From: Alphaproteobacteria bacterium
GTDB taxonomy: Bacteria; Pseudomonadota; Alphaproteobacteria; Rs-D84
Assembly: GCA_017443235.1 (NCBI GenBank)
Contig: JAFSOV010000014.1
Location: 1,867-65,866, forward strand
Direction: 5' to 3'
DNA: 64,000 nt
The notes beneath the pieces were generated by a model. It made no database searches and was not told the origin of the DNA. It saw nothing but the letters and a program-made list of their open reading frames with translations. Both the position numbers and the translations under genes were made by a program. This document shows positions 8,872 to 60,469 of the stretch, piece after piece. How positions within the stretch are numbered: the stretch's first letter is position 1; the number at the start of each line of letters is the position of its first letter.

Positions 8872-9891
8872 ATGTTTGACGAAAGTTTAGTGGTGGCAAG
8901 CGCGGTCAGTGCTTTTAATAATGCCGCGGTTGTTGGTCCCGCGTTTTTATGGAACGCGGTGTTGGCATCGCCGCTGTTTGTGGCAATATATGTTTTTGGA
9001 CGTAAATTTCTGGATGCAACGGGGTTGCGTCCATACGTGACGGGTGCGCGCGTGACATTTTGGACGGTTGTGTTCACGGCACTGTGGGTTGTGTTTATGG
9101 GCGGAAATTATGAAGTGCTGCGTGATGGCGTGTCACTTTTGCCGTGGGTTACGGCCGCCATTTTGTTTGTGACATCGATTTTTGTTGGAATAAATACCCG
9201 CGCGGTTAAATTACCGATTTGGTACGGTCGGCGGGATGTGTCAAATCGCCGCCGTTGGTGGGTGAATGTTTTGGTGTTTGCAATTGCGATGGTTCCGGTG
9301 GGTTTAAGTGATACACTAAATTGGTGGGGGCCGATATTACAGATTGGTGCGGTTCTGCTTGGTTTTATTATCGGTCGCCGTTCGCGGTGGCATATGCGCG
9401 GAACCGCATGGGCCATTGGGGTTATGTTGGCAACCACAATTGGTGTTTTGATGCAGCCTGAATTATGGCGATTTGGACAATTGGGAAATTTGACACCGGC
9501 GCACCTGATTTGGGTTATGTGTGTTGGAATTTTGGCGGCGGCGGCATTTGCGCTGGATGTGGTAAATCCACGTGGGCGGATTCATCAAAGTGCATATGTT
9601 AAATTAAAGTGGTTGATGCGGTTTGTGACCGCTTTGGCCGTTATATTGTTCGTCTTGACCGAGGCGGTGCCGATTTTCATCGGTGCGGTTATAATGGCAT
9701 TTGTTTTGTTTGCTATGTCAATTTGGCATGCGGAATCTGTCCCGGATGGCTTGGCAAACCGGATGGTTGCGTTGACCATTATCGCGTTTGGGGTACTGAC
9801 CGGATTGGTGGTCGTGACCGCGATGGGCGTATTGTGGTATGCCACGTTGCGTGATTCGGCACGGCACGGTGGCGCGGGATTCTTGTTATAA
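8872..9891 (+). CDS. Polytopic inner-membrane protein, function unknown
   Basis: 339-aa ORF with roughly 9-10 hydrophobic spans. No recognisable motif. Confidence 0.6.
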   Translation: MFDESLVVASAVSAFNNAAVVGPAFLWNAVLASPLFVAIYVFGRKFLDATGLRPYVTGARVTFWTVVFTALWVVFMGGNYEVLRDGVSLLPWVTAAILFVTSIFVGINTRAVKLPIWYGRRDVSNRRRWWVNVLVFAIAMVPVGLSDTLNWWGPILQIGAVLLGFIIGRRSRWHMRGTAWAIGVMLATTIGVLMQPELWRFGQLGNLTPAHLIWVMCVGILAAAAFALDVVNPRGRIHQSAYVKLKWLMRFVTALAVILFVLTEAVPIFIGAVIMAFVLFAMSIWHAESVPDGLANRMVALTIIAFGVLTGLVVVTAMGVLWYATLRDSARHGGAGFLL

Positions 9892-11981: not shown

Positions 11982-12012
11982 AAAAAAACTGGGGCGTTCC
12001 GCCCCGGTTTTT
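11982..12012. terminator. Bidirectional terminator between lpxB and the 12011 gene
   Basis: Stem GGGGCG / CGCCCC with a 3-nt loop. A-run upstream and T-run downstream. Confidence 0.6.
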
Positions 12013-14698
12013 ATGGTAATATACCGTCGGGCAGATCCAGGAATTCATCCTGATGTGCGGACATATATGCTTCGCAATCATCTTGATGAGCAAACGGACA
12101 CACCTGATTAGTTGCGGAATTGACAGCCGAAGTGCACCAATCCTGAATCGTTGCATTTGCATTTCCTATCGTGTAACTGTTAATACACGCACCGTCATTC
12201 ACTGGGAATGTTTCACCACCTGGTTCTTCACGGGGTTGCACAGGTATGCCAGCCACACATTTCCCAAATAGGCCGTTTTTACTTCTGCGACCACCATTTT
12301 CCCAACATAGACAGGCGCCCCATGCATTGGTGTCTACATTTAATATGTACCCTTTTGGACACATGTTTTCGTGCCAATTACTGGCGGAATTTCCGTAATT
12401 GCTTTCAAGTTCTTGCCCCATATAGTAGTCTACGCTCTGCCAGCTTAAAGAACAGATAGGATTTAATTGAACTCCGTACAAGCGATGATCAATAAATTGT
12501 GGTTCGATAAATTTGCCTTGGACATTCATACATTGCGTCATAAGGCCGTCTATGATTTGATTATAAACCTCGGTCGCGACACCGGTTGGACGCAAACGGC
12601 GATTCTTGAATTTATAAGTTTTGTTGCCATTGGGGTCCCAATTGTTTATATCAATTGAACCATCGGCATCGCGCATTGCCCAACCGTACGCATTTATGTT
12701 ATCCCCGTCCGGTGCGGTGTATTCATATTGACCAAATGTGGGGGATGTGTCGCGGTGTGCAACAACCATATCTAACCCGCCAAATACTTCTTCGATTTGG
12801 TCGGCGCAACTGGATATATCGGCAACACGTTGCGCGCACAAAGATTTATACCCCGATTTTCGTATCCCGTTTTCATCGTATTCATACAGTGTGAACCAAT
12901 CCAATGCCGTTTTTTTATCGGCCGATTCGGGCGTGTCAACAACATTTGCCGTGAACAGGCCGCTGTTCGGGGCATAGAAGTTTTCGTAATTTGTGCCGCC
13001 GAAACTGTCAAAGCATTGTTGGGCAACCGCACGGCACGCCGCCAATGTATCGGTACCTGTTTGTGATTCGATATATGTGGCAATTACATCATCACCGAAC
13101 AGACCGTTACACGAATCGATATAATCACTGCACATTTGTTGCGTAAGGACGATTTTGTCCGGAATCAAAGATGTATCGGAATCGCCATCAATCAATGCCG
13201 CCATTGCCGCGGTTATTGCGGTTTCGCGTTCGGCATAGCACGCAGATATCAAATCAAAACAACCGTTTTGTATGGTTTTGACCTTGGATTGCTGGGCATA
13301 GTATATGTCTAATAAAGCCTTGTCCAAATATTCCGCCCACACCGCATCGGCGATTTCTGTACATTTGTCCAACGCGTCCGCCGCAAACTTTTTGGTTTTA
13401 TTTTCGAAATTTTTAAGGAACTTTTGATTGTACGGGTTTTGTGACAGTTTTTGATCAACCGCGTCTTTACCAAAGTCGAACTTTAACAATTTGCCCAATT
13501 CGTTAAAGTTCACCACGCCCGCGATTGGTGCGCCCGTTGTCACGTCTATGAATTCGCCATTATCCAGGCATTTATGATAATTTGCACCGCATACTTGCTC
13601 GCTAAGCACCGCGGATTCAACTTCGTTTATACATGTGGTCATATCGGATGAATTGTGTTTTTTGCGGTTTTCTATACGCGCCAAATCCAACATTGCATCA
13701 CCTTCGCGGATGGCGGTTTTTAATTCTTTCTTTTTGCCTTCTAGTGCGGTCTGAACCGTATTGCAATCTTGTTCAATTGCCATAAGGTACGCCGTCACCG
13801 CCCTTTGCAACGATGCATCATTACAATCAGATGCGACCACCGTCCGGCATGACGGATAAACCGCGTTATACAGTTCAATGCCGTTATATGATGCGACAAC
13901 CTGGGCCGTGTCATTCAGGCCGAACATATTTGTCGTATCAAACGACAGATTTATACTGTTCAAATCGGACCATTTGCCGCCAACGGTTGTGTCTTCACCG
14001 CGGATTGAATTCATAATTGCGGTCAATAAAGCCTTGGATGCGGAAACATCGCGCGTCAGTGCATTTTCGCCATCGGACGCGGTGTGAACGGCGGTTGCCT
14101 GGGCCGCGGTCATCCCAACCATATCAAGGTTTTCCGTAAATTCAGACAATTTTGCGTTCGTGTCGTCCAAACTTTTGCGCATATTGACCAATTCGCCGAT
14201 GCGCGAACTGCAAGAACACCGGCGATATTCGTCGTTCTTTAATGTGCAGAATTGGTCCATACATTGGAAATATGCGCTTTTGCATTGGTTGTATGCCGCG
14301 CCGGTGCGGGTTTCCGCCATATTTGTCGCGGTCGAATTTGCCGTTGCCGCGGCACGCGCAGTTACCGCCCCGCGTGCGGCGGTGGTGGATGCGGTTCGCG
14401 AATTGGTCGTTCCGGAACGGCCATTGATTACCGCCGTTCGTGTGCGTGTGGCGGTTTCGGTGCGTGGTGTGGTAATTGGTAATGTTCCCGCGCGTGTCGC
14501 AACCGTTTTCTGGGCACGGGTTTGTGTTGCGGCGCGCGATAAGTCCGCCGCGGTACGTGCGGTTGTGGCCCCCCGTGATTGGGTGGTTGATGTGGCGCGT
14601 GGCGCACCGGTCGATGACGCGGCATCACGCACCGCGGCATACGCGGGCGCGCCGGCCAAAAAGCCCAGAATTGCGCCAAAAAGCAGAATTTTCTTCAT
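12011..14698 (-). CDS. Large secreted Cys-rich protein; paralogue of 55692..58067
   Basis: Signal peptide MKKILLFGAILGFLAGAPAYA, then an Arg/Thr/Ala-rich tract of about 130 aa, then CKSAYFQCMDQFCTLKNDEYRRCSCSSR. About 500 aa can be aligned by eye with the 791-aa protein. Start set at MKKILLF. Confidence 0.8.
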   Translation of the reverse strand: MKKILLFGAILGFLAGAPAYAAVRDAASSTGAPRATSTTQSRGATTARTAADLSRAATQTRAQKTVATRAGTLPITTPRTETATRTRTAVINGRSGTTNSRTASTTAARGAVTARAAATANSTATNMAETRTGAAYNQCKSAYFQCMDQFCTLKNDEYRRCSCSSRIGELVNMRKSLDDTNAKLSEFTENLDMVGMTAAQATAVHTASDGENALTRDVSASKALLTAIMNSIRGEDTTVGGKWSDLNSINLSFDTTNMFGLNDTAQVVASYNGIELYNAVYPSCRTVVASDCNDASLQRAVTAYLMAIEQDCNTVQTALEGKKKELKTAIREGDAMLDLARIENRKKHNSSDMTTCINEVESAVLSEQVCGANYHKCLDNGEFIDVTTGAPIAGVVNFNELGKLLKFDFGKDAVDQKLSQNPYNQKFLKNFENKTKKFAADALDKCTEIADAVWAEYLDKALLDIYYAQQSKVKTIQNGCFDLISACYAERETAITAAMAALIDGDSDTSLIPDKIVLTQQMCSDYIDSCNGLFGDDVIATYIESQTGTDTLAACRAVAQQCFDSFGGTNYENFYAPNSGLFTANVVDTPESADKKTALDWFTLYEYDENGIRKSGYKSLCAQRVADISSCADQIEEVFGGLDMVVAHRDTSPTFGQYEYTAPDGDNINAYGWAMRDADGSIDINNWDPNGNKTYKFKNRRLRPTGVATEVYNQIIDGLMTQCMNVQGKFIEPQFIDHRLYGVQLNPICSLSWQSVDYYMGQELESNYGNSASNWHENMCPKGYILNVDTNAWGACLCWENGGRRSKNGLFGKCVAGIPVQPREEPGGETFPVNDGACINSYTIGNANATIQDWCTSAVNSATNQVCPFAHQDDCEAYMSAHQDEFLDLPDGILP

Positions 14699-14836
14699 CT
14701 CTGATAAAAATGTTAGCAAATTTTGTAAATCCGGGGCAAGCATATTTTTACATATTTACACAACAGATTTTTCATTGTTTTGGTATTTTCCCCTTGCAAA
14801 ATGTATGAATTTGATTTATTATTGGCGTTGCCTTGT

Positions 14837-14921
14837 GGGCATATGGCGGAATTGGTAGACGCGCTAGTTTCAGGTACTAGTGGGGCGACCCTTGGAAGTT
14901 CGAGTCTTCTTATGCCCACCA
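14837..14921 (+). tRNA. tRNA-Leu (anticodon CAG), CCA encoded
   Basis: Acceptor GGGCATA/TATGCCC. Anticodon arm CTAGT-TTCAGGT-ACTAG. Long variable arm. Confidence 0.9.
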
Positions 14922-14933
14922 TATAAAAGTTTT

Positions 14934-15009
14934 GGGGTTGTAGCTCAGTTGATAGAGCGCTACGTTCGCATCGTAGAGGTCGTGGGTTTGAGTCCCATCA
15001 GCTCCACCA
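14934..15009 (+). tRNA. tRNA-Ala (anticodon CGC), CCA encoded
   Basis: Acceptor GGGGTTG/CAGCTCC carrying the G3:U70 alanine identity pair. Anticodon arm CTACG-TTCGCAT-CGTAG. Confidence 0.88.
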
Positions 15010-15152
15010 AAAATTGTTGATGCGCACCAAAAGTGCGCATTTAAAATTTTTGAATGCCGCGGCGGAGTGTGTGAAACGCACGAAGACGGGCGATAAGCAA
15101 AATTTTTCTTGCGCGGGGCGAAACATATTGGTATTATACCACGCGTTCACAC

Positions 15153-15239
15153 GGGGATATGGCGGAATGGTAGACGCTGAGGACTTAAAATCCTTTGGTC
15201 ATTGCGACCGTGTGGGTTCAAGTCCCACTATCCCCACCA
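15153..15239 (+). tRNA. tRNA-Leu (anticodon TAA), CCA encoded
   Basis: Acceptor GGGGATA/TATCCCC. Anticodon loop CTTAAAA. Long variable arm. Confidence 0.9.
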
Positions 15240-15331
15240 CCAAAATTTCAAGCAAGCAACGCGAGCGTTGAAATTTTTAGTGTCGCGGCGTAGAACACAA
15301 AGTGTGCGAAGACGGACAGAATATAGTTTTT

Positions 15332-15408
15332 GGATGTGTAGCTCAGTTGGTTAGAGCGCTTCGTTCACATCGAAGAGGTCGTTGGTTCGAGTCCAATCAC
15401 ATCCACCA
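15332..15408 (+). tRNA. tRNA-Val (anticodon CAC), CCA encoded
   Basis: Acceptor GGATGTG/CACATCC. Anticodon arm CTTCG-TTCACAT-CGAAG. Confidence 0.9.
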
Positions 15409-15484: not shown

Positions 15485-16573
15485 ATGAGGGAGTTACGTT
15501 TTATATTTTATTTGTTGTGCGGATTTGCACCGTGTTTGGTGCGGGCGGATTTTTTGCCCGATTTTGTTGTGCCGTTTCCAGATGTGGCAAATACAGATTA
15601 CCAAATCACAAAGTTACGGCCTGTGGATTTTCCGGCAACGGTGGCGGATCTAAGTTTTACGGATCGTATGGCATTAAAATCTAAATCTTATGAACCATTT
15701 CGTGATATGCGCGCATATCATGATTTGGTGGTCGAAGGCGAAGAACATTTTATTGAACGGCAAATGGCGTTGATGGAAATGGAACGCGAATATGATTATG
15801 AAATGATGGACAATGCCGAATATTGCAATAATTATTCTTTGGACGAAGAACATTGTGCCCAGGCGCCGGATGCGTGGCAAGAAGTCATTGATGTGGCAGA
15901 TGATGTTTCATACGGCACAGAATATTATGGAACAACGATTGGTGGTGGTGCGGTGATTGCCAACAACAAAGTACGTGGCGGTTCGTGCTATCCGGCGGCA
16001 AAAAGTAATGATTTCAAAAATCAAATTCTTACCAGTGGAACGTATGAAAGGATTTCGCCCGCGTTTGAAAAGGCAATGATAACGGTGTTTCGTAAAGAAG
16101 GTACATGCGGGATAATTGAAGGTGATCCGTGTGGATATACGTGTTACGGCATTGGGCAAAATTGTCTTGGTAAAGATTTGGGAATCAATGTTCGTAATTT
16201 GACACGGCTCCAGGCAGAAAAAATCTATTATGATAATTTCTGGCAAAAATATAATGTTGGTATGTTGCCGGATGTTATTTCTGGGGATTTGTTTTTGGCA
16301 ATGATGGCCAGTGGTCCCAAAACCGGCATCAGTCAGTTTAGAAAGTTTTTAGGTTTGACGAATGGGTACCAGTTGGATGAAAATGTTGTTGCCGCGGTGC
16401 AAAATTATAATGGCGATATTCATCAATCTTGGTTGGATGTGCGTAAGCAATTCTTGGTACAGGTTGCCGCAAGAAAATATAACAATCGTGTGTTGAACGG
16501 ATGGATGCGCGCAATTAGGTTAAAGCGCGAAAATGGGTGCCACGTAATACCGGTGACCCCATTATACAGATAA
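15485..16573 (+). CDS. Secreted GH108-like muramidase-domain protein with a novel N-terminal region
   Basis: Signal peptide present. The C-terminal half resembles Glyco_hydro_108 plus PG_binding_3: VFRKEGTCG..GDPCGYTCYGI..LTRLQAEKIYYDNFW..GDLFLAMMASGPKTGISQFRKFLG...NGWMRAIRL. The N-terminal FPATVADLSFTDR module is shared with the 18883 protein. Confidence 0.72.
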   Translation: MRELRFIFYLLCGFAPCLVRADFLPDFVVPFPDVANTDYQITKLRPVDFPATVADLSFTDRMALKSKSYEPFRDMRAYHDLVVEGEEHFIERQMALMEMEREYDYEMMDNAEYCNNYSLDEEHCAQAPDAWQEVIDVADDVSYGTEYYGTTIGGGAVIANNKVRGGSCYPAAKSNDFKNQILTSGTYERISPAFEKAMITVFRKEGTCGIIEGDPCGYTCYGIGQNCLGKDLGINVRNLTRLQAEKIYYDNFWQKYNVGMLPDVISGDLFLAMMASGPKTGISQFRKFLGLTNGYQLDENVVAAVQNYNGDIHQSWLDVRKQFLVQVAARKYNNRVLNGWMRAIRLKRENGCHVIPVTPLYR

Positions 16574-36029: not shown

Positions 36030-36372
36030 GCCGTACCGGTCGAACGATAAGCCGGATTCTGTACCGCCCAAACTCAGTGATGTTCCGGCGCGTTCATCAC
36101 CAAACATTGGGTGGCAAGCATAATTAATCTGCACAATGTGTTACCACAAAGTGTCAAGCCCTCTACCCGCCCCCGATTCGGGACAAATCATTGGGGGCCT
36201 ATTTGAAGTTGCTGCGCACAGAGATTGCCCGTTTCACTCAGGTTAAACCTGCTTCGTCACTGTTGCTCTAATCGTCGGGTTTCCCCGCCCGGTCGTTAAC
36301 CGGTGTGCCGTCCCGCGCAGTCCGGACTTTCCTCCGCCACGATTGTGACGGCTATGCTTTGTTCGACTGTTG
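36030..36372 (-). ncRNA. rnpB: RNase P RNA, bacterial type A (compact, about 340 nt)
   Basis: The minus strand carries the universal GAGGAAAGTCCGGAC (P4 5-prime strand), GGGGAAACCC, AGAGCAACAGTGA and ACAGAATCCGGCTTATCG. P1 pairing is GTCGAAC (5-prime) with GTTCGAC (3-prime). Ends are accurate to about 5 nt. Confidence 0.88.
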
Positions 36373-36503: not shown

Positions 36504-39500
36504 ATGTCTGGTTTTTTGAGGAAAATCTGCGTATTTTTTATGGTTATTGCGGCATGTTTCGCGGGGGTGCGCATTTATGCCGCAAGTACTTCCAGTTATT
36601 ATTACACATTGAACGATGACGGCGCCAAAGTGGCCAGTGTCCCGCATTCGTGGGCAATTGGTTCGGTCACACAGTTATCTTCCCTGCCGTATAAACCGGG
36701 TTATGGTTATGGTGGACATTACACCGCGCGGGGTTGCAGCGGAACCCAGGTTATAGATCATACCGGCTCTGTCCAAGTGTCCTTTAATGCCAATACCACA
36801 TTGTATGCGTGTTGGTATGCATATTATCCGCCATCTATTGTTTTGGATGATGCCGGGGGTTCGGGCGGGTTGTTGTATAATGGTGGTTGCTCTAATGTTG
36901 TGAGGTATATTTATAGCAATAATAACGAAGTGACGGTGACTTTTGCAAATCATGATGATTGGGCACGTGATTATATGGAGGTTGACAAAAGTTCCCCGTA
37001 TACGTGGAGAATTGGATGTTCCAACAATGATGTAGTGACCCAGATGTACAACTTGCCAACGCGTTCGGGGTACGCGTTTGGTGGATATTATACCGAACAA
37101 AATGGTTCGGGTACCCAGATTATCGATTCAAGTGGTAATTTAATTAATGCCGCGACCGTTTATAATACATTAGGCAATGCATCCCCAACAACAATCTATG
37201 CATATTGGACATCGAACAGTCCCACATGGGCGACGGTGACAATAAATGATCAATCTGCGACGACAAATTCCCAATATTCCACATTATATATAAATACGAA
37301 CAACAGTTTGAGCAATTGTGGTGGGTATCGAACGGGCCAATCGTGTACCGCGCTAAATATTACTTCTTTTACCCCACCAACCAAGACGGGATATACATAT
37401 GGCGGACATTACACGCAAACGAATGGTGGCGGATGGCAATGGGCGAATTCCAGTGGTGTGATACAGTACAGTGTGTCGGGAAATCAAACCGTTTACGCCA
37501 AATGGACACCCAAGGTTTATACGGTGACACTGAATCACGGCAGTCCCACAAATTCTCCCGCCCCATCAACGGTATACTTGAAGTATGGAACCGGATGGTA
37601 TTCCAATTCGGGGGCAACCACACCGATTTATGCCATGACGACCGTGCCACAAAAGACGAATTATACATTTGGTGGATATTGGACCGGACAAAATGGAACC
37701 GGAACGCGCGTTATCGATTCGGATGGAAATTTCCTTTATACAACGGCGGCACTGACGGCCCTAACATCAAACGCCACAATTTATGCGTATTGGACGGCGG
37801 CTACGCAAAATCCGACATGGATAACCGTCACATTTGATGATAACAGTCCCACAAATTATTCACAATATAATGGTGGGCGTTTGCGATATTTATATCGAAA
37901 TACGAATTCCGCGATTTCGAACTGCAGTGGATATAAATTATCACAATCGTGCAATGCAACAACCGTCACGCATTTTACACCACCTACAAAGGGCGGTTAT
38001 ACGTATGGTGGACATTATACTGGTTCGACCCAGTGGTCGGATGCAAGCGGAAATATTTTGGTGAACCTTAGTGCAAACACAACGGTGACCGCACAATGGA
38101 CGCAAAATTCCGGCACTATTTACACCGTGACATTATATCCAAATGGTGGAACGGGTTCAAATTTGTTGATATATGAAAGGCAGAATATAGGTTGGTATCG
38201 TGATAGCGGTGGAACATATCAAATTACATCATCTATATTTAATTCAACTTCTTCTGGCGGTGCGGGTTTGACCCAACCGACCTATACCAATCATGTGTTT
38301 AACGGTTATTGGACAGGAAAGACGGCCGATGGCGCGACATCATGTTCCGGAACCCAAATGATTGATGCCAATGGTAATATTTTGGCAAGCCCGTCATACG
38401 ATGCCAGTCAGCGTTGGTATGCCTGCTGGGTTGGTCAACAATCAACCGTGACATTGAATGCAAATGGTGGAACGGCGTGCGCGACAACATCGGTGACGGC
38501 GACATATGGCGCACAGATGCCGACACTGTCATGTGCCCCAACCGCGCCAACCGGGCACCATTTTAATGGGTACTTTGATGCCACGTCCGGTGGGACACAA
38601 TATTATTATGCCGACCTAAGTTCTGCACGCAATTGGGACAAGACCGGTGCACAAACGTTGTATGCCCAGTGGGTTGCAAATACTTATATTGTTAAATACT
38701 ATTGTGACAAAGAAGAATATGAATTGGGTACACCGGCCGCCACGGATACTGTGACATATGGTCAAACATATGTTGTTAAAACCCGTGCCCAGGTTGGGTG
38801 TTCTTTGGCAAGTGGTAAAAAATTTATTGGTTGGGATTACGGGGAAGGCAATGCAAATCTATGGCAACCGGGGGATATTATAACATATAATTATACCGAT
38901 GATTTGGATGTTTCGGGATATGTTATGGACATAAATACCGTGACATTAAATCACGGTTCACCCGATAACAGCCCCGCCCCGAATACGGTTTATTATGTTA
39001 CAAGCGACGGTTGGTATTCCGATTCGAACGCAACGATTGAGGCAACTGTGTCGCCGATTCCGGTTAAATATGGATATGATTTTCTGGGATATTGGACTAC
39101 CGCGACATCTGGTGGAACCCAGGTTGTGGATGCTAGTGGGCAATTTATTACGACCACTGTTACTGAGCCAACAACCATATATGCGCGTTATAGTGAAAAA
39201 ACATATCAAATTGCGCTGGATGATCAAAACGCTACAACCGCCGGTGCCCCGACACCGTTGTATTATAGTATTTCAAATGGATGGTCGGCGACCAGTGGTG
39301 GAACAACAATTACACAAATTACAACGGCCCCGACAAAATCTGGATATGTGTTCAATGGATATTGGACACAAACCGGTGGTAATGGAACAAAAATTATAAA
39401 TTCGGACAGAACATTTGCAACAGTGCCATCTGCAATTCTGCAGGCGATGCACGATGGCGAAATTGATATGCTGTATGCGGATTGGTTGACTGTGAATACT

Positions 39501-42500
39501 GTCACATTCTCGTGTCAGAATCAGGCTGGTGATGGTTCGGGAACCCCAAGCCCGGCAACAGTTCAGATACATGATGGCGAAACATTAACATTCCCATCAC
39601 TTTCAAACTGTTCGTGGGGTAATGCGGGATATAGTCCATTTTTGTGGGGTTATGTTGTAAATGGCAGTTTTGTAGAAACTCATGATGCGGGTGACACGAT
39701 AACATGGGATTCTGGTTGGGGAAATCGCACATTTAATGTGTGGTATGCGCCAAATTATTTCAATTATGAATATTCCTGTGGTGCCGGGTCCGGAACGCCG
39801 CCGGCATCCGGAAATACATATTATCATAATGGTGGATGGACAACCGCGGCAAATACATGTACGCTACCGGCGAATAAGCATTTTGTCGGGTGGTTGGAAC
39901 CTGTGTCAAATGAGGTATGGGCGGAAAGCACCACGCCAACAAATGGTTGGCGGTGGCCATACGATGTGACGGCCGCGGCCGGTGGCGCGTTTGTTGCACA
40001 ATATGACGATGATACATATACGGCGACATTTACATGCGAAAATAACGCATTTTCGCCATATGTGTACAGTGGAACCGCGCCAGACGATATAACGGATATC
40101 GCGTATCAGCAGACGATTACCCTGCCATCGCCATCTGTGTGTACAAATAATTATCCGGACGCGGGTTGGATTGCTTCGCCGGCACAGGAATGGAATTATT
40201 ACTGTGTTGATGCCAATAATGGGGCTGCCTTGGGTGGTGGCTCCGCCGGTGCAGGATCTTGGACATGGCCAAAACAAGGTAATTGCACATTCCAGGCATC
40301 CGGTGGACGCAGTATATATCATATTTATTATTATTGCGATGATACAACAAGTACGGTTTCATTGGATCAAACCGTTGATTATTCAAATCGTGATACGGTG
40401 CGCCCGGCAACTGTCGCGGTCGCCGGATGCACTGCGCCAACGGGGTATCATTTTACCGGATGGAAGGTTGGTGCGACCAATACAATTTTATCGCCCGGGC
40501 AATATGGTGGCAACAATGCCCTGTGGCCGTATGCCGCACATACGCATCTGCGTGCCCAGTGGGAGGCAGACACATATAACCTGACCTGGGGTTGTGGCGA
40601 TGGAACCGGGACGCCGTCCGGCGCATCGTTCCCGACAAGTATAGATTATGGCGAAACACTGACATTCCCGGCAAATACGGTATGTTCCGCGCCGATGGGG
40701 TATGAATTTGCCGGTTGGACCATTGATGCGAATACGACAACATATCAACCAAACGGGACATTTGTGTGGAACCTGACATCGGGCAGCGAGATAAACGCTT
40801 CGTTCACACCAATAACATATACGATAACATATGACTGTAACGGTGGAACCGGTTCGCCGTCAACGCAAAATGTGACCTATGGTGGTTCGATTCAATTGAT
40901 TTCTACGGACGCGTGTACCCGGGGTGGTTATACGGCGAACGGTTGGGATGTTTCGGGGACATCGCCGGTTGTTAACTATGCATCCGAGGCGGTGGTAAAT
41001 CCGTGGCCATATGCGGCAAACAAAACGCTAAGTGTTAATTGGACCGCCAGAACATATACGATAACGTATTACGATGAAGATGGTACGACCGTATTGACGG
41101 GATTGAACCCGACCAGTTATACATATGGTACGGGTGCAACAATAAATGCGGTTCCAACCAAGGCATATTCGGTGTTTAATGGTTGGTGTACAACACGCAA
41201 TGCGACAACAGGTACGCTTTCTGGGTGCCAACCGACAACAAATCCGCATGTTATTGGAACAACAGAAACCGACAACAAGGCATACTATGCCAGTTGGTCT
41301 TGCGCAACCGGGTACCGAAAATATAACTATGCAGTAGACAGTTTTTTGTATCCATCGGGTGGCGGACAAATTCCGGCGGGTTCGTGCGCCCCGATTCGTT
41401 ATATTATAAATTGCCATGGTAATGGTGGAAACGCATGTTTGGAACAGTTTAACCTGGGGCAATCTGGGACGGTTGGTACATACAGTTTTGGAAGTTCGTA
41501 TAACACCATTGCCATCAATTCCACGGGCAGCGATATAAGCGCAGTACCATTGCCTGTATCTAATAATGGTAATGTGGAACCTGTTTGGCCGTTCTTGTTT
41601 ACCAAAAGTCCGGATGCAAATTATACGGCCTTTACACCGTGGCCCGCCAATGGCCTGGTCAGCAGCAGTGTGCAATCAGGTTATCTTAGTCATAACTATG
41701 TGACATTTATGCAGGCGGTTGCCAACGAATCGTATAACAACGGTATAGATTTTGGTCGTCCGCATTATACATTTGACGGTTTGTGGACCGCGGCAGATGG
41801 TGGAAACAAATATATTGGTGCCGATGGTTTGTCGCCAACCGGTGGATATGCGTTTGATAGTCAAGAAATGGCAAATTTCTTTACGGCGGATGCGGATGTC
41901 TATGCGCATTGGGTGCCGGATCGTTATACAATAATGTTAGAGGCCGAAGGGTATGATGGGACATTGCCTGCGATTTATGAAACATATAACACCGGATGGG
42001 CCCAGACATCGACAGAAACACCGGGCGATTGGGTGCCGTTGACCGCGGAACAAATGGCACATCGGGCAGGATATACATTCTTGGGATATTATTCGTCTGC
42101 TTCGGGCTCGAATGCCACCAAATACATCAATGCCGATGGAACATTGGCCAATGGTGTGACGGCAACGACATTTGGCCAAAGCACGTCCATATTTGCTCGA
42201 TTCGAAGCAAACACATACAATGTGACATATGATTGCAATGCGGATGGTGCGACCGATTATACGGATACGGCGACATATGATTCTACATATACGGTATTAA
42301 GGTTGAGTGAAGCGGGATGCTCGGTCATAATTGGACATACATTTGGTGGTTGGGCGATATCCGGGACAAACCTGATTAAGAGTGGTGGCGATACGTTCAC
42401 ATGGAACTATACAGAACCCAAGACTTTAACCGCCCAATGGACGCCGAATGTTTACCATATTACATTTGATTTCAATAATAATTATACCGGTGGTGGCGCC

Positions 42501-45500
42501 CAGGTCGGTACGGCAAATATGTATGAAAAATATGGCGTTGGTTGGGGCGTGAACGAAAGTGGCGGTACCGGTTCGACATCGGGTGAATTATGGAGTGACA
42601 CCGTAATTACATTACCGCGTTATGCAGGACACACCTTTGTTGGTTATTATGATAACACTGCGGGAACCGGCACGCAATATGTTGGCCCAGATGCGCAATT
42701 GCCATCCAACAGGACCTTTGTAATGGATAAAATATTGTATGCGGTGTGGAGTGATTGTACACCGGGAAATTATTGCGATGATGGCCAGGTTATATCGTGC
42801 AGCACCGCGACAAATGGTAAATACCCGTACAGTGACGCCGGGGCAAGCAGTATAAACGATTGCTATTTAACATTAACGACCGGGAAACGTGTCGCGACCG
42901 CCGGCGCGGGTATGACCAATTGTGCCGCGAACAGTTTCAGTGACGACACAACAACGAACGTTTATTATGGTGGCACGGCATCCGCATCGCACCCCACAAC
43001 CAGTTCTTGTCCGGCCTGCTCTACACTGGGTGGTGGATTGTACGCAACCAGTGCCGGCGGCACAGGTTCAACCGGATGCTATATAACGACAACGGCGGGA
43101 AAATATGTTGTTGCAAATACTGATACCGCCCAGACAACATGCCCGGTCAAGAAATACTGTGAATCTGCAACATTGTATTGGCCGAGTGTTGGGCAAATTG
43201 CGGATTGTCCAACCCCAGACGCGTCAACAATGCGCACAACATATCCAGATAATTATTATAATGTATCAGATATATCAATTTCATGGGGGTCGGCCACTGG
43301 TGCAACATCTATATCAAAATGTAGGGCAATTTATTTTGTGACAAACGAGCGTGGTAAATTCTATCATACGCAAATAGAGTATAATCCTGTTACAGGAAAA
43401 TATGATTCTGGCAACGGGGTACAGAAATATTACACAGTTTTGAATCCGGGATATTATGGTACGGAAAAATTGTATTCGGCTTCGTATTGCAATTCTTCGT
43501 CCACGACAAGCCTTATGTATTATAAAGATGCGCAACCGTGTCCGACGGGCAGTTATTGCCCGGGCCTGACCAGTATGCCATTGTGTTCATCGGGAACATA
43601 TGAAACGACAATTGGTCTGTATTCTTGTCCGGTTGCATATCCCGACAGTGCCGCAATGTCAACCAGTATCGATGCGTGCTATTTAACCACAACGGCGGGG
43701 AACTATGTCGCAACGGCGGGTGCGGGTGAAACGCAATGCGCCGCAAACAGTTTCTGTACCGGTGGCACGGTCGTGTATTATAACGGTACCGGCGGTATCA
43801 CCGCATGTTCAACCGGCGCCGCCAGCAGTTACAGCACCAGCGCCGCCGGCAGTGACGCCGCCACAGATTGCTATAAAACCGTCACATTAAACAAAAATGG
43901 TGGTTCGGGAACGATTCAGGGAACAAGTGGAACCGACCCGGCATCCGTCACATGTTATTATAACACATCTTGCCCGTTTGGCAGTGCCGGCGGATTGCAA
44001 CAAACCGGATATACATTCACCGGCGGTTGGGGTACGTCCGCATCGTGCAGTGATACAACAACGTCCTATACCGTGCCAAACGGAACAAATACGTACTATG
44101 CATGTAAATCCCAGAAAGATTATACAATGCAATATTTGTGCAGTGATGGCACGGAAAGTGCAAACTGGAGTTTTGCCGGTACGGCACCGGTCGCAACAAA
44201 TCCGGTGCATTATGGCGACAGTGTGACAATGGCCGCCAATCCATATGGTGATCAAACCGGTTGCCGCAAAGTATGGGGAACATCCGGCGATGCAGATTAT
44301 TGTACAGATTGCTTTACGTTCGGCGGTTGGAAGATTCCAGCAGAATTTACGTCACTGGAACAAACTTTGGTACACCTGGGCGGTTCCGATGTAAATACGT
44401 GGGGTAATACAGACAGTACAGATTGGTGTATTATTGACAATACATCTGATGCGTGTACTGGATTCTCGGATGCGGTATTTTATGTTTACCCAATGTATAC
44501 TCCAAAACAATATGATATAGAATATATGTATGCGACCAGTCCGGTAAATAATAATGCGTCTATGCCGGCGGATTATACATATACCGTTGGCACCAGTATC
44601 AGCAACGCGGACCAGACCCCACCCGCACACGCCACATTTAATGGTTGGTGCACGGGCGCGAATGGAACCGGAACATGCTATAATGCCGGTCAATCCATTA
44701 CAATTGGCAATCGCGCCCATGGTGATATAACATATTACGCAAATTGGTCATGTGGTTCGGGATATACTTTGACATACGATACGAATAACCAACCGGTATG
44801 TTCGGCGGATGTGATAACGTGCGATCCGGGTTATTATTTGCAAGGTTCCAGCGCAACATGTCAACCATGCTTGGTTGGTGATTATTGCGAGGGTGGAAAT
44901 TTCGTGCATAATGGAACCGACCAAGGGTTGAAAGTATGTGCGACCGAGATTGCCACAGGTTGGACCAGTTTGGGTGGAACAGATTGCACCGCCAAGACCA
45001 GTTGTTATTATCCGGTGACATTGAACAAAAACGGATTTAGCGGAACCATAGCCGCGGGTGCCGGTACCGGATGCACGGTTGCAGCCAAATCCACGGGTAC
45101 AAATCCGGCAACATTAAGGTTATTCTATAATACCGCATGCACTTTGCCAACATTTACAACGGGTTTGACCCAGACAGGATACACCAATGCGACCACATGG
45201 TCGGAACAAAGCACGTTGAATGCAACGGCGGTTTCAACAATTGATGCCGTGACCACAACGCCCGCGGTGACGACATATTATGCGCGAAAAACTACGTGCA
45301 AGGCTAATTATTATACCCCCGATAATACAACATGTACGGCATGCAGTGGTTTGGCCGGTGGCGCATACCCCAAAAGTGCCGCAGGAACGGGTGACGCAAC
45401 CAGTTGCTATGCATCAATAACATTGAACAAAAATGGATACAGCGGAACCATATCGGCAAATGCGGGCACGGGATGTAAGGTTGCATCAAGGGCTATCGGC

Positions 45501-55057: not shown

Positions 55058-55633
55058 ATGAAAAAAATGTCTTTGGAAGAAATGGTAAAAAAAGTTGATG
55101 AATCCAAAAAAGTGAATCCGTTGGATTTGTCTTCGGACCAAGATTTGTCGATTGCGTTGATGAACTTGGTGTCATTGGAAGAACATTTCTTTTTCAGTGG
55201 TGCAAAAACGAAACAGCCGGGATTTTACGATTTAATAAACGTTGTGCGAAATATGCGCAAAGAATTGATGGAACGTGTCGTTGATAAATCCGGCAAACAG
55301 GGTAACGAAGTTTGGTGTATATCAAAACATTTGTTGGCGGCATCTATGCGTCTGTACGAGGTTGGAACCAAGGCATTGGGCGCGGGAAATAAAAAAGACG
55401 CATACAAAATGTTTGAAAAGGCTTATGAGTTATATTCTCTGTTCTGGGGATTGAATATGAAAATGATAGACCTTAGTGGGGTTCAGGAAATGGAACCTGA
55501 ATTTTATGGCGCCGTTATGGACAAAGATGCGAAAAAATCAAAAGATGTAAAAAAAGAAATGGTTGAATCGCGCTCGGCCGTCCAGAAATTGGGCGATTGG
55601 GTCAAAAAAACGGTGAATTGCTGTATAGAATAA
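55058..55633 (+). CDS. Hypothetical helical protein
   Basis: 191 aa with RBS AAAGGAG, Lys/Glu-rich, ending in the C-terminal CC pair (NCCIE). No known motif. Confidence 0.6.
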   Translation: MKKMSLEEMVKKVDESKKVNPLDLSSDQDLSIALMNLVSLEEHFFFSGAKTKQPGFYDLINVVRNMRKELMERVVDKSGKQGNEVWCISKHLLAASMRLYEVGTKALGAGNKKDAYKMFEKAYELYSLFWGLNMKMIDLSGVQEMEPEFYGAVMDKDAKKSKDVKKEMVESRSAVQKLGDWVKKTVNCCIE

Positions 55634-55691: not shown

Positions 55692-58067
55692 GTGTTAAGG
55701 ACGAAAGAGATTTTTTCTTGGTTTTGTGCCTTTTTGGCAACGGTTTTTGTCGGTGTGTCCTATGCGGTCCAGGCGCCCAATCCGCGTGCGGTCGAATCGG
55801 AATCTGCACCGCGTCAGGTCAAGACCGATACCCAGTCGCGTCGTGCGACCGCGTCACCGACACGTATCCGCATAATTGGGCCGACGCGCGTAAATGCCAA
55901 TGGTGGGCGCAGTGCGACAACATTGACCGCCGTAAGGGTTGATGCCACGAATGCGCGTGCAAATTCTTCTACGCGCAGTGCGGTGCCGGCCGCGCGCGCG
56001 CGCAGTACCAAGTCCGGCACAACAAATGCGCGTGCGGGTGCAAAAGTTGCATCGGGCCCCAAAGGCGTGGCGCGCAGTGCGACCGCCCGTGCCACCGCGG
56101 TATATAATGATGTTAGCAAGATTGGTGGCGGATATGCCGAATGTCGCGAATCGTATGCAACGTGTATGGATCAAATGTGTGCAAACGCCAATGAAACATA
56201 TCGCCGGTGTTTTTGCAGTGACCGTTTCACAAAATTCCGTGATATAGAAAATTCTTTGGACCAGGCAATGATTCTGTTGCAACAATTCCAAGACAATAAC
56301 TTGAACGTGGTTGATAAAACCGCGGCCGAGGTCGAGGCGATGTATTCCCCGACCGTGGGTGAATTGGCAATTAAAAAAGACACCAGTGCCGCCGCCAAGG
56401 CGTTGGATGCAATCAATGATTTGTTGTCGGGGAAATCGTCTTCATCATATTCGTCTTCATCGGGTTCTTTGGGAATATTGGACTTGGATTTCACCACAGA
56501 TTTTGATGATATTTGGTCAAACGATGTTGGTTCCATATTTTCGTCCAGTGGTACAGATATGTCCACGTTGGAAGGCACGGCATTGTTTAACGCGGCACAA
56601 AATCAATGCGTGCGTTTAACCCAAAATAATTGCAGCAGTGACGCCATGTTTTCTATGTCGCGCAGTTCGTATAATATTTTGATAACCCAAGATTGCAATA
56701 TATATGAAAAGAATTTGAACAAGAAACGCGAAACCGTGGCCCAGGCCGTTCGTACGGCCGAAAAATACTTGCGCGAGGCACGTTTGGAAGAATATCGTTC
56801 GCATAATTCTGCGGACGTGAACGAATGTATTGCCAAGGTTCGTGATGCAATTTTGGCGGACACCGCGTGCGGTGCGAACTATAAACGTTGTTTGGACCCG
56901 ACCGGGGCATATATCAATGGTGCAACGGGTGAACCGATTTACAGTCCGCGGTTGTTCAAATTGGACGAAACAATCACGTTAAGCGGGGATGTTAGTGGCG
57001 ATGTGTTGCAACAAAACCCCAGTTATGATAAATATTTAGAAAATTATCGTAAATATGTGACGCGCGAATTGGATACATGTCGTGATATTGCGGATTTTGT
57101 TTGGACAGAATTCAAACGGAATGCGATTATCGAAATTGCCCAATCGCAAAGTGCAAAAATAGAAGAAGTGAAATCGTCCTGCGTTGATACGATGGCGGAA
57201 TGTTATGACACCCAAACAAACGCATTAAAGAATTTTGATAAAAACACGGCGACGACGGCCGCGGCGTTGGGTCGATATACCGCGCGCGATATGTGTCGTG
57301 AAAAGGTGGCAACCTGTGCCGCATTGTACGGTGGTGAAAATTGCCAATTTGACAGTCGGGGTAAATTAACAAATGCGGGTGCGTGCGGATTGACATCTTT
57401 GTTAAGTTATGTTGAAACCGTGGATTCTTTGAATGTTGTTGAAAAGTGTGAAACCGCCCTGCAAGAATATGTGACAAAACTGTGTACGCCCGATAATACC
57501 ACATATTCATATCCGTATAATTGTCGCAGTATGACATTCAGCGGCAGTGGCACCACCAATTTACGCGAAACGTTGGAAAATTTTGCGTTGCAGAATTGTC
57601 GTGACCCATTAAAAACAGGCGAAATAACAACCTATACCGAATTGGGTAACCAAATGCCCCAGATACGGGTACAGATTGATTCTTTGATTGCCGGGGTTCG
57701 TGACGCGTTAAGTTCATCTTTGGCCGAGGTTTGTAATGATTTGGGCGGTATGTGGGCACCACAGGTCGAACCCGGGGCTCAAGCTCAATATTTACAGTCT
57801 TTCTATAACACCGCATTTGGTGGGTATTTGCCCGACAATACGTCTGGGCGGCCCGCGGGTAAAGAGTATGGCCTTTGTTATGAAAACAGCGCGTATCTTG
57901 CGTGCCAAGAATACGAAAGATTGGGCGAAGAAAAAGATAAAAAATTCGCAGAATGGAACGAGGCAACCCAGACATGTGTGCTGTATGATGGATGGTATGA
58001 ATATAAATGCGCCGAATTGGGGACGGGATATTATATGGAAGGTGTATGTTACATCGTCGCAAATTGA
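55692..58067 (+). CDS. Large secreted Cys-rich protein; paralogue of 12011..14698
   Basis: GTG start after AAGGGAG. Signal peptide, an Arg/Thr/Ala-rich tract, then CRESYATCMDQMCANANETYRRCFCSDR. Conserved later blocks include ACGANYKRCLDP, QNPSYDKYLENY and DTCRDIADFVW. Confidence 0.82.
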   Translation: MLRTKEIFSWFCAFLATVFVGVSYAVQAPNPRAVESESAPRQVKTDTQSRRATASPTRIRIIGPTRVNANGGRSATTLTAVRVDATNARANSSTRSAVPAARARSTKSGTTNARAGAKVASGPKGVARSATARATAVYNDVSKIGGGYAECRESYATCMDQMCANANETYRRCFCSDRFTKFRDIENSLDQAMILLQQFQDNNLNVVDKTAAEVEAMYSPTVGELAIKKDTSAAAKALDAINDLLSGKSSSSYSSSSGSLGILDLDFTTDFDDIWSNDVGSIFSSSGTDMSTLEGTALFNAAQNQCVRLTQNNCSSDAMFSMSRSSYNILITQDCNIYEKNLNKKRETVAQAVRTAEKYLREARLEEYRSHNSADVNECIAKVRDAILADTACGANYKRCLDPTGAYINGATGEPIYSPRLFKLDETITLSGDVSGDVLQQNPSYDKYLENYRKYVTRELDTCRDIADFVWTEFKRNAIIEIAQSQSAKIEEVKSSCVDTMAECYDTQTNALKNFDKNTATTAAALGRYTARDMCREKVATCAALYGGENCQFDSRGKLTNAGACGLTSLLSYVETVDSLNVVEKCETALQEYVTKLCTPDNTTYSYPYNCRSMTFSGSGTTNLRETLENFALQNCRDPLKTGEITTYTELGNQMPQIRVQIDSLIAGVRDALSSSLAEVCNDLGGMWAPQVEPGAQAQYLQSFYNTAFGGYLPDNTSGRPAGKEYGLCYENSAYLACQEYERLGEEKDKKFAEWNEATQTCVLYDGWYEYKCAELGTGYYMEGVCYIVAN

Positions 58068-58101: not shown

Positions 58102-59118
58102 ATGTTAAAAAACAAAATAATGGTAAGCGTGATTGCTGTGGCGGCTGGTTTTGGCCCCGCGTTTGGTGCGGCCAGTCTTAGAACCGGTGATCGCGCAGGC
58201 AGCCTTAGGGTGACACCCGCGGTGACAACGGTCAAGACGGGTGGGACGGGTACGGCAACGACCACGACGAATACCGCGACATCGCTGTCGGGTGGGCGTA
58301 TGGCGACTTTGCCGGGGCCAACCAACATCAGCACTAAACCCAAACTGCCATCGTCGGCATCGGCGGCATCGGTTGCGGATTTGAAAAATAAACTGGACCA
58401 ATTGGCCCAAGAAATCAGTGATTTGGCGAATGCCGGCGTTGACGAAGGTGCGGTTCGGGATATTATAGATTCTGAATTGGCCGGCAAAAATTATGCGACC
58501 GTCCCGTATGTTGATACGGCCGATAGCGCAAAATTAGACACGGATGAATTTGCCAATAAATTCGATACACGTGTGACGGAAAAACAGCTGGTTGATGAAA
58601 CCGCGTTGGCGGCCCATGCATATACCAAGCCCGAGGTTGATGGTATTGTTGCGGCGATAAAACCGTCTGCGGCGATAAGATATGATGAATCAACCGGGGA
58701 TTTGCAATATCAAGATTCCAATGATTCATGGACAACGTTTGCGAATAAGAGCGATTTCGCAGGCACGGATGGTAAAAACATCGAATTACAAAAAACGGAC
58801 AATGCTATTCAATGGCGTGTCAAGGGTTCAGGGGAAAATTGGCAGGATTTGGTTTCTTTGGACGAAATTACCGGTGCCACGGGCACGACCGGTGCGGATG
58901 CGTGTGAACCTAAATATTCGTCGGCAATCACCGCGGATGGCGATACGCGTGTCACGATAACCTGTGTGAATGATGATACCAAGGTTTTGGGTCAATACAC
59001 AGTGTCCAAGGGCGCGGATGGCGCAATCCCATGTCCGGGCGGCATAGAATTAGAACAAGATACGGCGTATTCTGGGGCGGATGGTGCCACCAAGTACGAT
59101 CTTGTCTGCAAGGAATAA
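58102..59118 (+). CDS. Secreted fibre-like protein with phage-tail-fibre-type motifs
   Basis: 338 aa with signal peptide and an Arg/Thr-rich tract. Contains a coiled-coil, YVDTADSAKLD, and the GTDGKNIELQKTDNAIQWRVKGSGENWQDLVSLDEITGATG motif. A Cys module follows, and the protein ends KYDLVCKE. Confidence 0.8.
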   Translation: MLKNKIMVSVIAVAAGFGPAFGAASLRTGDRAGSLRVTPAVTTVKTGGTGTATTTTNTATSLSGGRMATLPGPTNISTKPKLPSSASAASVADLKNKLDQLAQEISDLANAGVDEGAVRDIIDSELAGKNYATVPYVDTADSAKLDTDEFANKFDTRVTEKQLVDETALAAHAYTKPEVDGIVAAIKPSAAIRYDESTGDLQYQDSNDSWTTFANKSDFAGTDGKNIELQKTDNAIQWRVKGSGENWQDLVSLDEITGATGTTGADACEPKYSSAITADGDTRVTITCVNDDTKVLGQYTVSKGADGAIPCPGGIELEQDTAYSGADGATKYDLVCKE

Positions 59119-59162
59119 AAACAAATAAACAAACAATAATTTAGGAACAAAAGGAAGCAAAA

Positions 59163-60434: not shown

Positions 60435-60469
60435 GGAAAGGATTGTGAAATAAATAAAAAGGAAGTCAA

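Follow-up and report, generated by a model that had tools for sequence, protein, structure and literature searches.

An Exported, Cysteine-Rich Protein Family with Arginine-Spaced Leaders in the Reduced-Genome Gut Order Rs-D84

The window analyzed here, a 64,000-nucleotide stretch of an alphaproteobacterial contig, raises the question of what two of its genes, designated A and B and encoding large, cysteine-rich proteins, contribute to the bacterium that carries them. The organism belongs to the order Rs-D84, whose members, including Candidatus Enterousia, have not been cultured but are widespread in the guts of ruminants, birds, and people of non-industrial populations (PMC12306168). Because their genomes are smaller than 1 Mb and apparently lack respiration, as well as much of biosynthesis, these bacteria are thought to depend on other cells, and they have been proposed to be obligate symbionts or parasites (PMC12306168). 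The analyses described below place A and B in an old family of exported proteins that, judging from sequence and predicted structure, probably builds or decorates the cell envelope.

Gene A, which has lpxB and a tRNA cluster as neighbors, is encoded on the minus strand within an open reading frame spanning 12011..14743, and the reading of 895 amino acids begins at the ATG at 14698 (MKKILLFG...). This start is supported because all 39 orthologs aligned (39/39) begin at the same methionine; in that alignment both M1 and L5 are invariant. Judged by eye, the N-terminus comprises a basic n-region, a hydrophobic core, and an A-x-A site with cleavage between AYA and AV; residues 2-14 are helical in the AF2 model, and A22, V23, R24, and D25 are at least 90% conserved among orthologs. 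The protein consists of four parts, namely a signal peptide, a disordered Arg-repeat tract, a conserved all-alpha core, and a paralog-specific C-terminal domain (Table 1). The candidate promoter, located inside the 15-codon upstream extension of the open reading frame, scores below the threshold of a consensus scan and is accordingly weak.

Table 1. Positions of gene A, its parts and flanking signals, and of gene B and the first fiber gene, in window coordinates.
Feature	Position	Strand	Basis or remark
Gene A (895-aa family member)	12011..14698	minus	Open reading frame and translation; stop codon 12011-12013
Signal peptide of A, residues 1-21	14636..14698	minus	MKKILLFGAILGFLAGAPAYA then AVRD; by eye
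Disordered polycationic leader of A, residues 22-130	14309..14635	minus	Degenerate [V/T/A][S/A]R[A/S/T]A units
All-alpha Cys-stapled core of A ('CMDQxC domain'), residues 131-570	12989..14308	minus	
Subfamily-A-specific Cys-rich alpha/beta C-terminal domain, residues 571-895	12014..12988	minus	
Intrinsic-terminator-like hairpin and T-run, directly after A stop codon	11991..12005	minus	GGGGCGGAACGCCCC, then AGTTTTTTTA
Tentative A promoter	14710..14739	minus	TTGCCC-N18-TAACAT; by eye; ends 11 nt before ATG
Gene B (791-aa paralog, separate orthogroup)	55692..58067	plus	Exclusive clade, 35 representatives, support 100
Fiber-like 338-aa protein	58102..59118	plus	First of three fiber genes downstream of B

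An earlier, sequence-only reading of this DNA had proposed that A and B are paralogs with a common order of parts, and BLASTP comparison of the two proteins bears this out (31% identity over 542 aa, E=8e-62). In both, a signal peptide is followed, as had been described, by a tract of 100-125 aa in which R (12-13%), T (12-27%), and A (20-25%) are abundant, along with S, and the existence of a large, exported, cysteine-rich paralogous family with a shared arrangement of parts is confirmed. The alignment ends at approximately residues 537 and 549 of A and B, respectively, and the C-terminal domain of A does not align to B, which agrees with the observation by eye that the C-termini of the two proteins differ. 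What they share is a roughly 400-aa helical, Cys-studded core containing the anchors VCGANYHKCLD/ACGANYKRCLD, QNPYNQKFLKNF/QNPSYDKYLENY, and DKCTEIADAVW/DTCRDIADFVW, all of them present as reported; the first anchor, while likewise found in both proteins, has the spacing C-x3-Y-x2-CMDQ-x-C-x6-YRRC-x-CS-x-R rather than the C-x2-Y originally given. That the similarity is not confined to low-complexity sequence is evident from a profile built on the core only. Run against 1.84 billion proteins, this profile finds 954 clusters at 50% identity, of which 569 score E<=1e-30; its match on A spans residues 133-537.

The description of A as a founding member of the family does not hold, given that this 0.98-Mb genome encodes at least 11 members distributed over 7 contigs. 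Together, 11 members sum to 8,785 aa, or approximately 26 kb and 2.7% of the 985-kb genome, a share of a minimal genome that makes the family a prime candidate for the interface with a partner or for an unusual envelope architecture. Nor is the expansion local to this lineage, as had been supposed; it is old and order-wide. Members were detected in 149 of 151 sampled genomes of Rs-D84, and genomes from the genera of the bacterium's own family yield 8-16 matches apiece. When the whole class was sampled (253 genera, 301 genomes), the bacterium's own genus was the only one matched, in each of its 3 sampled genomes, and the family is absent from the approximately 250 other alphaproteobacterial genera sampled. 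The family is confined to the reduced-genome gut order comprising Candidatus Enterousia and its relatives. A full-length ortholog of A is found in 277 species-level genomes of Candidatus Enterousia; paralogs A, B, C, D, E, and G each form a well-supported clade of their own (10-42 representatives), and A and B each occupy a fixed syntenic position in other species. Each paralog is an old orthogroup with a fixed chromosomal place. In the case of B, the order rsmH, a 163-aa membrane protein, a 191-aa protein, and B is kept in most of 8 related genomes, while the collagen-like fiber genes located directly downstream of B are present in 4 of the 8 and were not found in 3.

Searches of A against Pfam-A and NCBIfam (E<=1) and PHROGs (E<=0.01) returned no family match, domain scans of B yielded nothing but a sub-threshold match to DUF4756, and a sequence-profile search of the PDB produced only keratin-type coiled-coil noise. 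Structural comparison was similarly negative: no Foldseek match to the PDB was significant (best E=0.86 with the full model and 1.2 with the core model), the best match in BFVD had E=0.034 and a TM of 0.06, and the non-significant matches consist of generic coiled coils, among them EnvC, PcsB, RipA, spectrin, Tc-toxin shells, and colicin Ia. Across Pfam, NCBIfam, PHROGs, PDB sequences, and Foldseek, then, the family is undescribed, as the sequence-only reading had expected in recognizing no characterized relative. Neither of the two refuting outcomes named in that reading emerged from the comparisons made here. Kinship with another Cys-rich secreted protein of the same genome (666 aa) was considered and is not supported (hhalign probability 17.5%).

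The core is the most constrained part of the protein. When A is compared with five orthologs, overall dN/dS is 0.12-0.15, and values by part are 0.03-0.06 for the core, 0.14-0.31 for the C-terminal head, and 0.22-0.42 for the leader, demonstrating strong purifying selection on the core. Among the paralogs of the bacterium's own genome (n=9), cysteine occupies 16 of the 24 invariant core columns. In the full-length AF2 model of A, pLDDT in the core is just 40-85, compared with about 90 in the C-terminal domain, while modeling of the core only, from a cross-subfamily alignment, gives an all-alpha structure with two helices of approximately 55 residues (pLDDT 85.3; the deep alignment used for structure prediction comprised 90 rows). 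The family is thus nearly order-wide, with a core conserved to a housekeeping-like degree and a predicted fold that has no match among solved structures. In the head of A, islands such as CLCWENGGRRSK are conserved in orthologs, with indel-rich loops between them. No Pfam match to an autotransporter-type beta-barrel translocator was found in A, and its modeled C-terminal domain, which combines alpha and beta elements and has short strands, forms no barrel. Repeats of the Flg_new type (PF09479) are present in the C-terminal parts of 5 of 37 long family members (best E=6.9e-41); the domain scan detected none in A or B.

A second characteristic of the family is the composition of the leader. That of A (R 12%, T 27%, A 25%, K 1%) has a pLDDT of 26-32 and shares an identity of only 0.28-0.34 with its orthologs, with indels. 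Family-wide, leaders contain 11.5% R, 2.6% K, and 4% D+E, with a median net charge of +13, and their arginines are regularly spaced, with a peak at 5-9 residues and avoidance of lysine. Directly adjacent arginines (spacing of 1) make up 3% of observations where 11.5% is expected, and this deficit, together with the low lysine content, indicates that clustered basic motifs are avoided. The suggestion of a tract shared with the fiber protein encoded from 58102, putatively a sorting or anchoring signal, is partly supported as regards the sharing, in that tracts of similar composition follow the signal peptide in fiber-like proteins, in a short family member, and in a Pom-type porin-like protein; the fiber protein itself does open with a tract of this type, though in a weaker R/T/G/A form. 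Other proteins with Phe as their last residue, probably barrels, likewise have similar tracts at their N-termini. The N-termini of barrels are normally periplasmic, and the occurrence of the tract at such positions therefore favors a function in the periplasm. A Brucella-type covalent linkage of the N-terminus to peptidoglycan, in which the mature protein begins with Ala-Asp, was considered and set aside, the mature N-terminus of A being AVRD.

Cysteine parity is a recognized mark of DsbA substrates (PMC7678975, PMC2823432), and the number of cysteines in the mature protein is even in 129 of 145 representatives (odd in 16) and in 9 of 10 paralogs of the bacterium's own genome, with counts that are not multiples of four; mature A has 30 and mature B 28. 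The genome encodes a membrane-anchored DsbA-like protein with a CPYC site, which 38 of the 41 genomes from the bacterium's family retain, so that A combines a signal-peptide-like N-terminus (by eye), an even mature cysteine count, and a DsbA in the same genome. The partner that would re-oxidize DsbA was not detected: the genome contains no PF02600 or PF07884 (DsbB, VKOR), and DsbB rose above the cut-off in none of the 41 genomes. With approximately 170 disulfides' worth of cysteines, a DsbA, and no DsbB, VKOR, or quinones, the family poses a biochemical puzzle.

The explanation that best accommodates these data, and to which we give roughly even chances, is that the family consists of Sec-exported proteins, each composed of a basic tether, a disulfide-stapled rod, and a paralog-specific head, residing in the envelope or on the surface. 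Following export, the DsbA-like oxidoreductase would pair the cysteines into intramolecular disulfides, and all paralogs would share the stapled helical core as a rigid rod or scaffold. The flexible Arg tract could act as a multivalent electrostatic tether to an anionic polymer, whether the LPS or peptidoglycan of the cell itself or the surface of a partner, and the divergent heads would confer a separate binding specificity on each of the approximately 11 paralogs, which together might form an envelope or surface layer where the partner-dependent bacterium meets its surroundings. Hints of a surface location come from the Flg_new repeats of the long members and from the fiber genes that follow B. 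An outer-membrane crossing route may exist, since the genome encodes a secretin and a GspE/GspF/PilO-type machine; GspE/F are not adjacent to the secretin and lie on another contig. Against the surface reading count the lack of Flg_new repeats in A and B, and A carries a Sec-type signal only, with no recognizable outer-membrane translocation or anchoring domain. Absence of DsbB and VKOR in an anaerobe without quinones counts against the disulfide step, and the conservation of the core is compatible with a surface role but no less with an internal structural one.

Such an internal role is the substance of a possible, if somewhat doubtful, alternative in which the proteins form a disulfide-cross-linked lattice in the periplasm, under the outer membrane, with the Arg tract binding peptidoglycan and the Cys-rich bodies stiffening the envelope, much as is believed of OmcB in chlamydial elementary bodies. 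In OmcB, wall rigidity is believed to derive from the part of the protein outside the basic region (PMC2229832). The Sec signal unaccompanied by a translocation module, the tracts of the porin-like and probable-barrel proteins, the housekeeping level of core dN/dS, and the fixed gene positions adjoining lpxB and rsmH all favor this view; eleven diverged paralogs with differing heads are, however, hard to fit to a purely structural role, Flg_new repeats are typical of extracellular proteins, and even cysteine parity suggests that pairing takes place within molecules and not between them. A further proposal, unlikely but worth stating, concerns the tract itself, which may be a new envelope-targeting or tethering module common to unrelated exported proteins (the Cys-rich family, fiber, and Pom-type porin-like proteins), such that surface structures are fixed to one anionic polymer or routed through the secretin and the approximately 11 paralogs constitute the main contact apparatus of an obligately partner-dependent alphaproteobacterium. 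If this were true, the Arg-only tract would be an unrecognized N-terminal module of Rs-D84 bacteria. The regular Arg-only tether is, in any case, a candidate new anchoring motif.

Two other accounts are less probable still. A role as released effectors or bacteriocin-like weapons is quite improbable; in such a colicin-like layout, the N-terminal tract would thread into the target cell, the helical hairpin would bind a receptor, and the variable C-terminus would carry the activity. The succession of disordered tract, very long helices, and variable C-terminus does resemble the translocation, receptor-binding, and cytotoxic domains of colicins, colicin Ia is among the non-significant Foldseek matches (E=2.9), and the organism is believed to live at the expense of other cells (PMC12306168); nevertheless, the signal peptide and the 28-44 cysteines set these proteins apart from colicins, scans of the family proteins and their neighbors found no toxin or immunity family, the Foldseek likeness is that of a generic coiled coil (TM at most 0.19), and the genes are core-genome, syntenic, and present in nearly all genomes of the order, while bacteriocins are accessory and variable. 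We consider it highly improbable that the conserved cysteines bind metal (Zn or Fe-S) and render the core metal-stabilized or redox-active. Retention of DsbA in minimal genomes, cysteine counts that are even without being multiples of four, a histidine content of 0.7% in the body, and the spread of cysteines along long helices instead of in knuckles weigh against metal, in whose favor stand the dense N-terminal cluster C-x6-C-x4-C-x9-C-x-C, the anaerobic habitat, and the missing DsbB and VKOR.

Among known systems, colicin Ia (PDB 1cii) shares with the family the order of a disordered N-terminal tract, a long helical hairpin, and a variable C-terminal domain; the present proteins differ from colicin-type bacteriocins in their signal peptide, many cysteines, and order-wide synteny, and are accompanied by neither an immunity nor a lysis gene. 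Among surface proteins, the modular fibrillar type with Listeria-Bacteroides (Flg_new) repeats or a stalk-plus-head layout likewise combines a long rod-like conserved part with a variable distal domain, but the rod here is Cys-stapled rather than a Cys-free coiled coil, and the host is Gram-negative, with no LPXTG or other known anchor. OmcB offers the third comparison. Its basic N-terminal domain, which carries an XBBXBX heparin-binding motif, binds the polyanion heparan sulfate, and its body is believed to lend the envelope stiffness (PMC2229832). The present proteins are unrelated to it in sequence, A and B matching no Pfam family; the tract here is 100-270 aa long and Arg-only, with a single Arg per 5-9 residues and no XBBXBX, and the body is all-alpha with two 55-residue helices and exists as about 11 paralogs per genome. 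What the two systems have in common is a signal peptide, a faster-evolving basic N-terminal region, and a Cys-rich body under stabilizing selection, in each case in an obligately host- or partner-dependent Gram-negative bacterium.

A, the gene for an 895-aa Cys-rich exported protein, and its 791-aa paralogue B encode products that share 31% identity over 542 aa (BLASTP, E=8e-62), the alignment ending at residues ~537/549, beyond which the proteins differ, as the sequence-only reading had stated. The anchor motifs listed in that reading are all present, but the spacing of the first requires correction (C-x3-Y-x2-CMDQ-x-C-x6-YRRC-x-CS-x-R, not C-x2-Y). Rather than being confined to low-complexity sequence, the similarity extends to 24 invariant core columns, 16 of them Cys, in an alignment of nine own-genome paralogues, and a profile of the core alone recovers 954 clusters (50% identity) among 1.84 billion proteins, 569 of these at E<=1e-30. 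Among the 150 matches listed, the core domain starts no further than ~310 residues from the N-terminus, and mostly 100-300 residues in.

Searches for known relatives returned no match to A and only a sub-threshold DUF4756 match to B in Pfam-A and NCBIfam (both E<=1), no match in PHROGs (E<=0.01), and coiled-coil noise only in a profile search of PDB sequences. Similarly, Foldseek found nothing significant in the PDB (best E=0.86 for a full-length and 1.2 for a core-only model of A, TM at most 0.19) or in BFVD; the weak matches were generic long-helix proteins. Those homologues that carry a name are all designated "hypothetical protein", and a study analysing Rs-D84 genomes makes no mention of cysteine or of this family (PMC12306168). 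The CMDQxC family is real and well supported, and, as initially supposed, the databases and papers searched contain no description of it.

With respect to gene A itself, the ATG at 14698 (MKKILLFG...) is shared by 39 orthologues from other species, M1 and L5 being invariant in the alignment, and because all 39 begin there, the 895-aa reading is the right one. Given the tRNA genes on the other strand upstream and the convergent neighbour lpxB downstream, A looks monocistronic. Of 82 related loci, each reaching ~4 kb either side of A, only 11 have an orthologue of the nearby GH108-like protein. Comparison with five orthologues gave dN/dS values of 0.12-0.15 for the whole gene, 0.03-0.06 for the core, 0.14-0.31 for the C-terminal domain (head) and 0.22-0.42 for the Arg-rich leader (tether). 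Judged by these ratios, A is clearly functional, and the core is its most constrained part, head and tether being faster-evolving.

Coordinates of gene A, gene B and other features (window positions unless a contig of the bacterium's own genome, C1 to C18, is named)
Feature	Position	Strand	Remark
A open frame	12011-14743	-	910 aa
G+C-rich hairpin, then T-run	12005-11991	-	directly 3' of A stop codon
Promoter-like TTGCCC-N18-TAACAT	ends 11 nt before A ATG	-	weak; read by eye; below promoter-scan threshold
tRNA cluster Leu-CAG, Ala-CGC, Leu-UAA, Val-CAC	14837-15408	opposite to A	upstream of A
Secreted 362-aa protein	15485-16573	+	GH108 muramidase-like domain (E=1.2e-9); beyond tRNA cluster
RNase P RNA gene	36032-36370	-	
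3,293-aa ORF	36504-46385	+	just downstream of RNase P RNA gene; largest ORF of window by far
191-aa protein	55058-55633	+	58 nt upstream of B
B	55692-58067	+	
Fibre-like secreted proteins, three	58102-62392	+	338, 423, 640 aa; 3' of B
XRE-type gene	62487-62900		
DsbA-like protein	C1, about 9267-9743	-	
Secretin	C2, 32920-34545	+	lipobox-like start
GspE/PilB ATPase, GspF/PilC platform, PilO-like protein	C14, 48879-53403	-	
Long CMDQxC family members	C3 three; C4 two; C9 one; C11 two (A, B); C15 one; C18 one		

The count of relatives that the sequence-only reading had proposed was carried out. The bacterium's own genome (984,916 bp, 18 contigs, 94% complete) encodes ten long members, which range from 697 to 1067 aa and contain 28-44 Cys in the mature protein, and one short member of 322 aa on C10, whose match is limited to the first half of the core (hhalign probability 96.6%, E=4.9e-10); together they sum to 8,785 aa, or ~2.7% of the genome. 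Relatives of A are encoded in 277 stretches of a one-genome-per-species collection, and those among the matches listed are 49-92% identical over residues 1-893. Full-length orthologues at the 80 loci listed belong to Candidatus Enterousia or unclassified alphaproteobacterial MAGs, from sources including rumen, yak, deer, goat, chicken and human gut, and one lies in a closed 958,618-bp genome. When the class was sampled evenly (301 genomes from 253 genera), family matches were confined to the bacterium's own genus, while a sample of the order had them in 149 of 151 genomes: 8-16 per genome in genera of its own taxonomic family (up to 12 candidates scored) and 1-10, weaker, in other families. 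In a tree of 156 core domains, orthogroups A, B, C, D, E and G each occupy an exclusive clade of 10-42 representatives (support 99-100). Gene positions are likewise fixed: A lies between the tRNA cluster and lpxB, with lpxB present at 72 of 82 loci and tRNAs at 74, and the order rsmH, 163-aa membrane protein, 191-aa protein, B is kept in seven of eight related genomes. Range, clades and positions together establish the family as an ancient, order-wide set of orthogroups; neither a recent local duplication nor the designation of A as "founding member" survives this result, A being in no special sense a founder.

Full-length A, modelled with AF2 from an alignment with 40 orthologues, has a disordered leader at pLDDT 26-32 (residues 16-132), a helical core for which confidence is mixed and, at residues ~550-890, an alpha/beta C-terminal domain that is well defined (pLDDT about 90). 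A core-only model (residues 126-566, from a 90-sequence alignment spanning subfamilies) has an all-alpha fold that includes two helices, each ~55 residues long (mean pLDDT 85.3, pTM 0.57). Mature Cys counts are even in 129 of 145 family representatives and 9 of 10 own-genome paralogues, and such parity is known to characterise exported proteins with disulfide bonds (PMC7678975, PMC2823432). A single DsbA-like protein is encoded in the genome; it has membrane segments at its N-terminus and a CPYC site, and 38 of 41 genomes of the taxonomic family retain it (26 of 27 of high quality), even though they span only 0.6-1.1 Mb. DsbB and VKOR are absent from the bacterium's own genome, and DsbB scored above cut-off in none of the 41, in agreement with the respiratory chains reported lacking in Rs-D84 (PMC12306168). 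Further large secreted proteins with 21-47 Cys, on C5 (1066 aa) and C15 (666 and 286 aa), share short C...C..CG.(D/N)F..C motifs and lack significant profile similarity to the family (hhalign probability 17.5% for the 666-aa protein).

Across 142 members, leaders have a median length of 131 residues (range 29-270), a median net charge of +13, and a composition rich in Arg (11.5%, Lys only 2.6%; body 3.3% and 5.2%), Thr (17%), Ala (18%) and Ser (13%), with 4.1% Asp plus Glu. Successive Arg residues lie 5-9 residues apart far more commonly than by chance, adjacent Arg is depleted (3% vs 11.5% expected), and the usual context is [V/T/A/I]-[S/A]-R-[A/S/T]-A, as in VSRAA, SARSA and SARTA. Leaders of A orthologues are only 0.28-0.34 identical, with indels, yet the spaced Arg columns persist. 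These patterns indicate an ordered repeat, not mere low complexity. Similar post-signal tracts occur in two fibre-like proteins (including the 338-aa protein at 58102, as noted earlier), the short family member, another Cys-rich protein, and a 522-aa ORF on C9 matching the Protochlamydia porin family, Pom (36 bits, cut-off 22.4). Three proteins ending in terminal Phe (C6, C13, C18), probably outer-membrane barrels, also carry post-signal extensions, two of them Arg/Thr-rich. The proposed sharing of one module gains some support but is not certain, since the tracts of the Pom-like and some terminal-Phe proteins contain abundant Tyr, Gln and Asn as well. Outer-membrane barrel N-termini are normally periplasmic, and a tract located there argues for action in the periplasm.

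Other observations bear upon the surface. The export signal of A is of Sec type only. The secretin and the separate C14 cluster resemble the machinery of a type IV pilus or of type II secretion, here within a genome of <1 Mb; a route across the outer membrane may therefore exist, without any tie to the CMDQxC family. Flg_new (Listeria-Bacteroides) repeats, a domain typical of extracellular proteins, occur in 5 of 37 long members (best E=6.9e-41). The fibre-like proteins following B contain collagen-like GEQGPQG repeats and segments resembling alanine zippers, and they are similar at their C-terminal ends, which contain Cys; their genes were found after B in four of eight related genomes and not in three, the eighth locus ending just after B, and the stretch from B to the XRE-type gene differs among these genomes. 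The 191-aa protein, with no signal peptide or Pfam family, is 66-90% identical at the same position in seven of the eight, with no match at the B locus of the remaining one, and this conserved position suggests a possible dedicated partnership with B.

The function and localisation that we infer for the family are as follows. A would be exported by Sec, its cysteines would be oxidised by a DsbA-like enzyme, the Arg tract would hold it to an anionic polymer, and it would present a paralogue-specific head. We favour, with no more than even confidence, such a tether-rod-head protein of the envelope or surface. An OmcB-like, cross-linked lattice in the periplasm is a more doubtful proposition: similar tracts at barrel N-termini and housekeeping-like conservation speak for it, while diversified heads and Flg_new fusions speak against it. 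A colicin-like effector released from the cell appears improbable, and a metal-binding core more improbable still; Cys counts (28, 30, 34, 36, 38, 42, 44) are not multiples of four, and His is rare (0.7%).

The closest analogue of the tether-rod-head protein envisaged here is chlamydial OmcB, which has a signal peptide, a faster-evolving basic N-terminal region that binds polyanions, and a constrained Cys-rich body (PMC2229832). The two nevertheless lack homology and differ in that the XBBXBX motif is specifically avoided in CMDQxC family leaders, and in that the family has a helical fold and about 11 paralogues.
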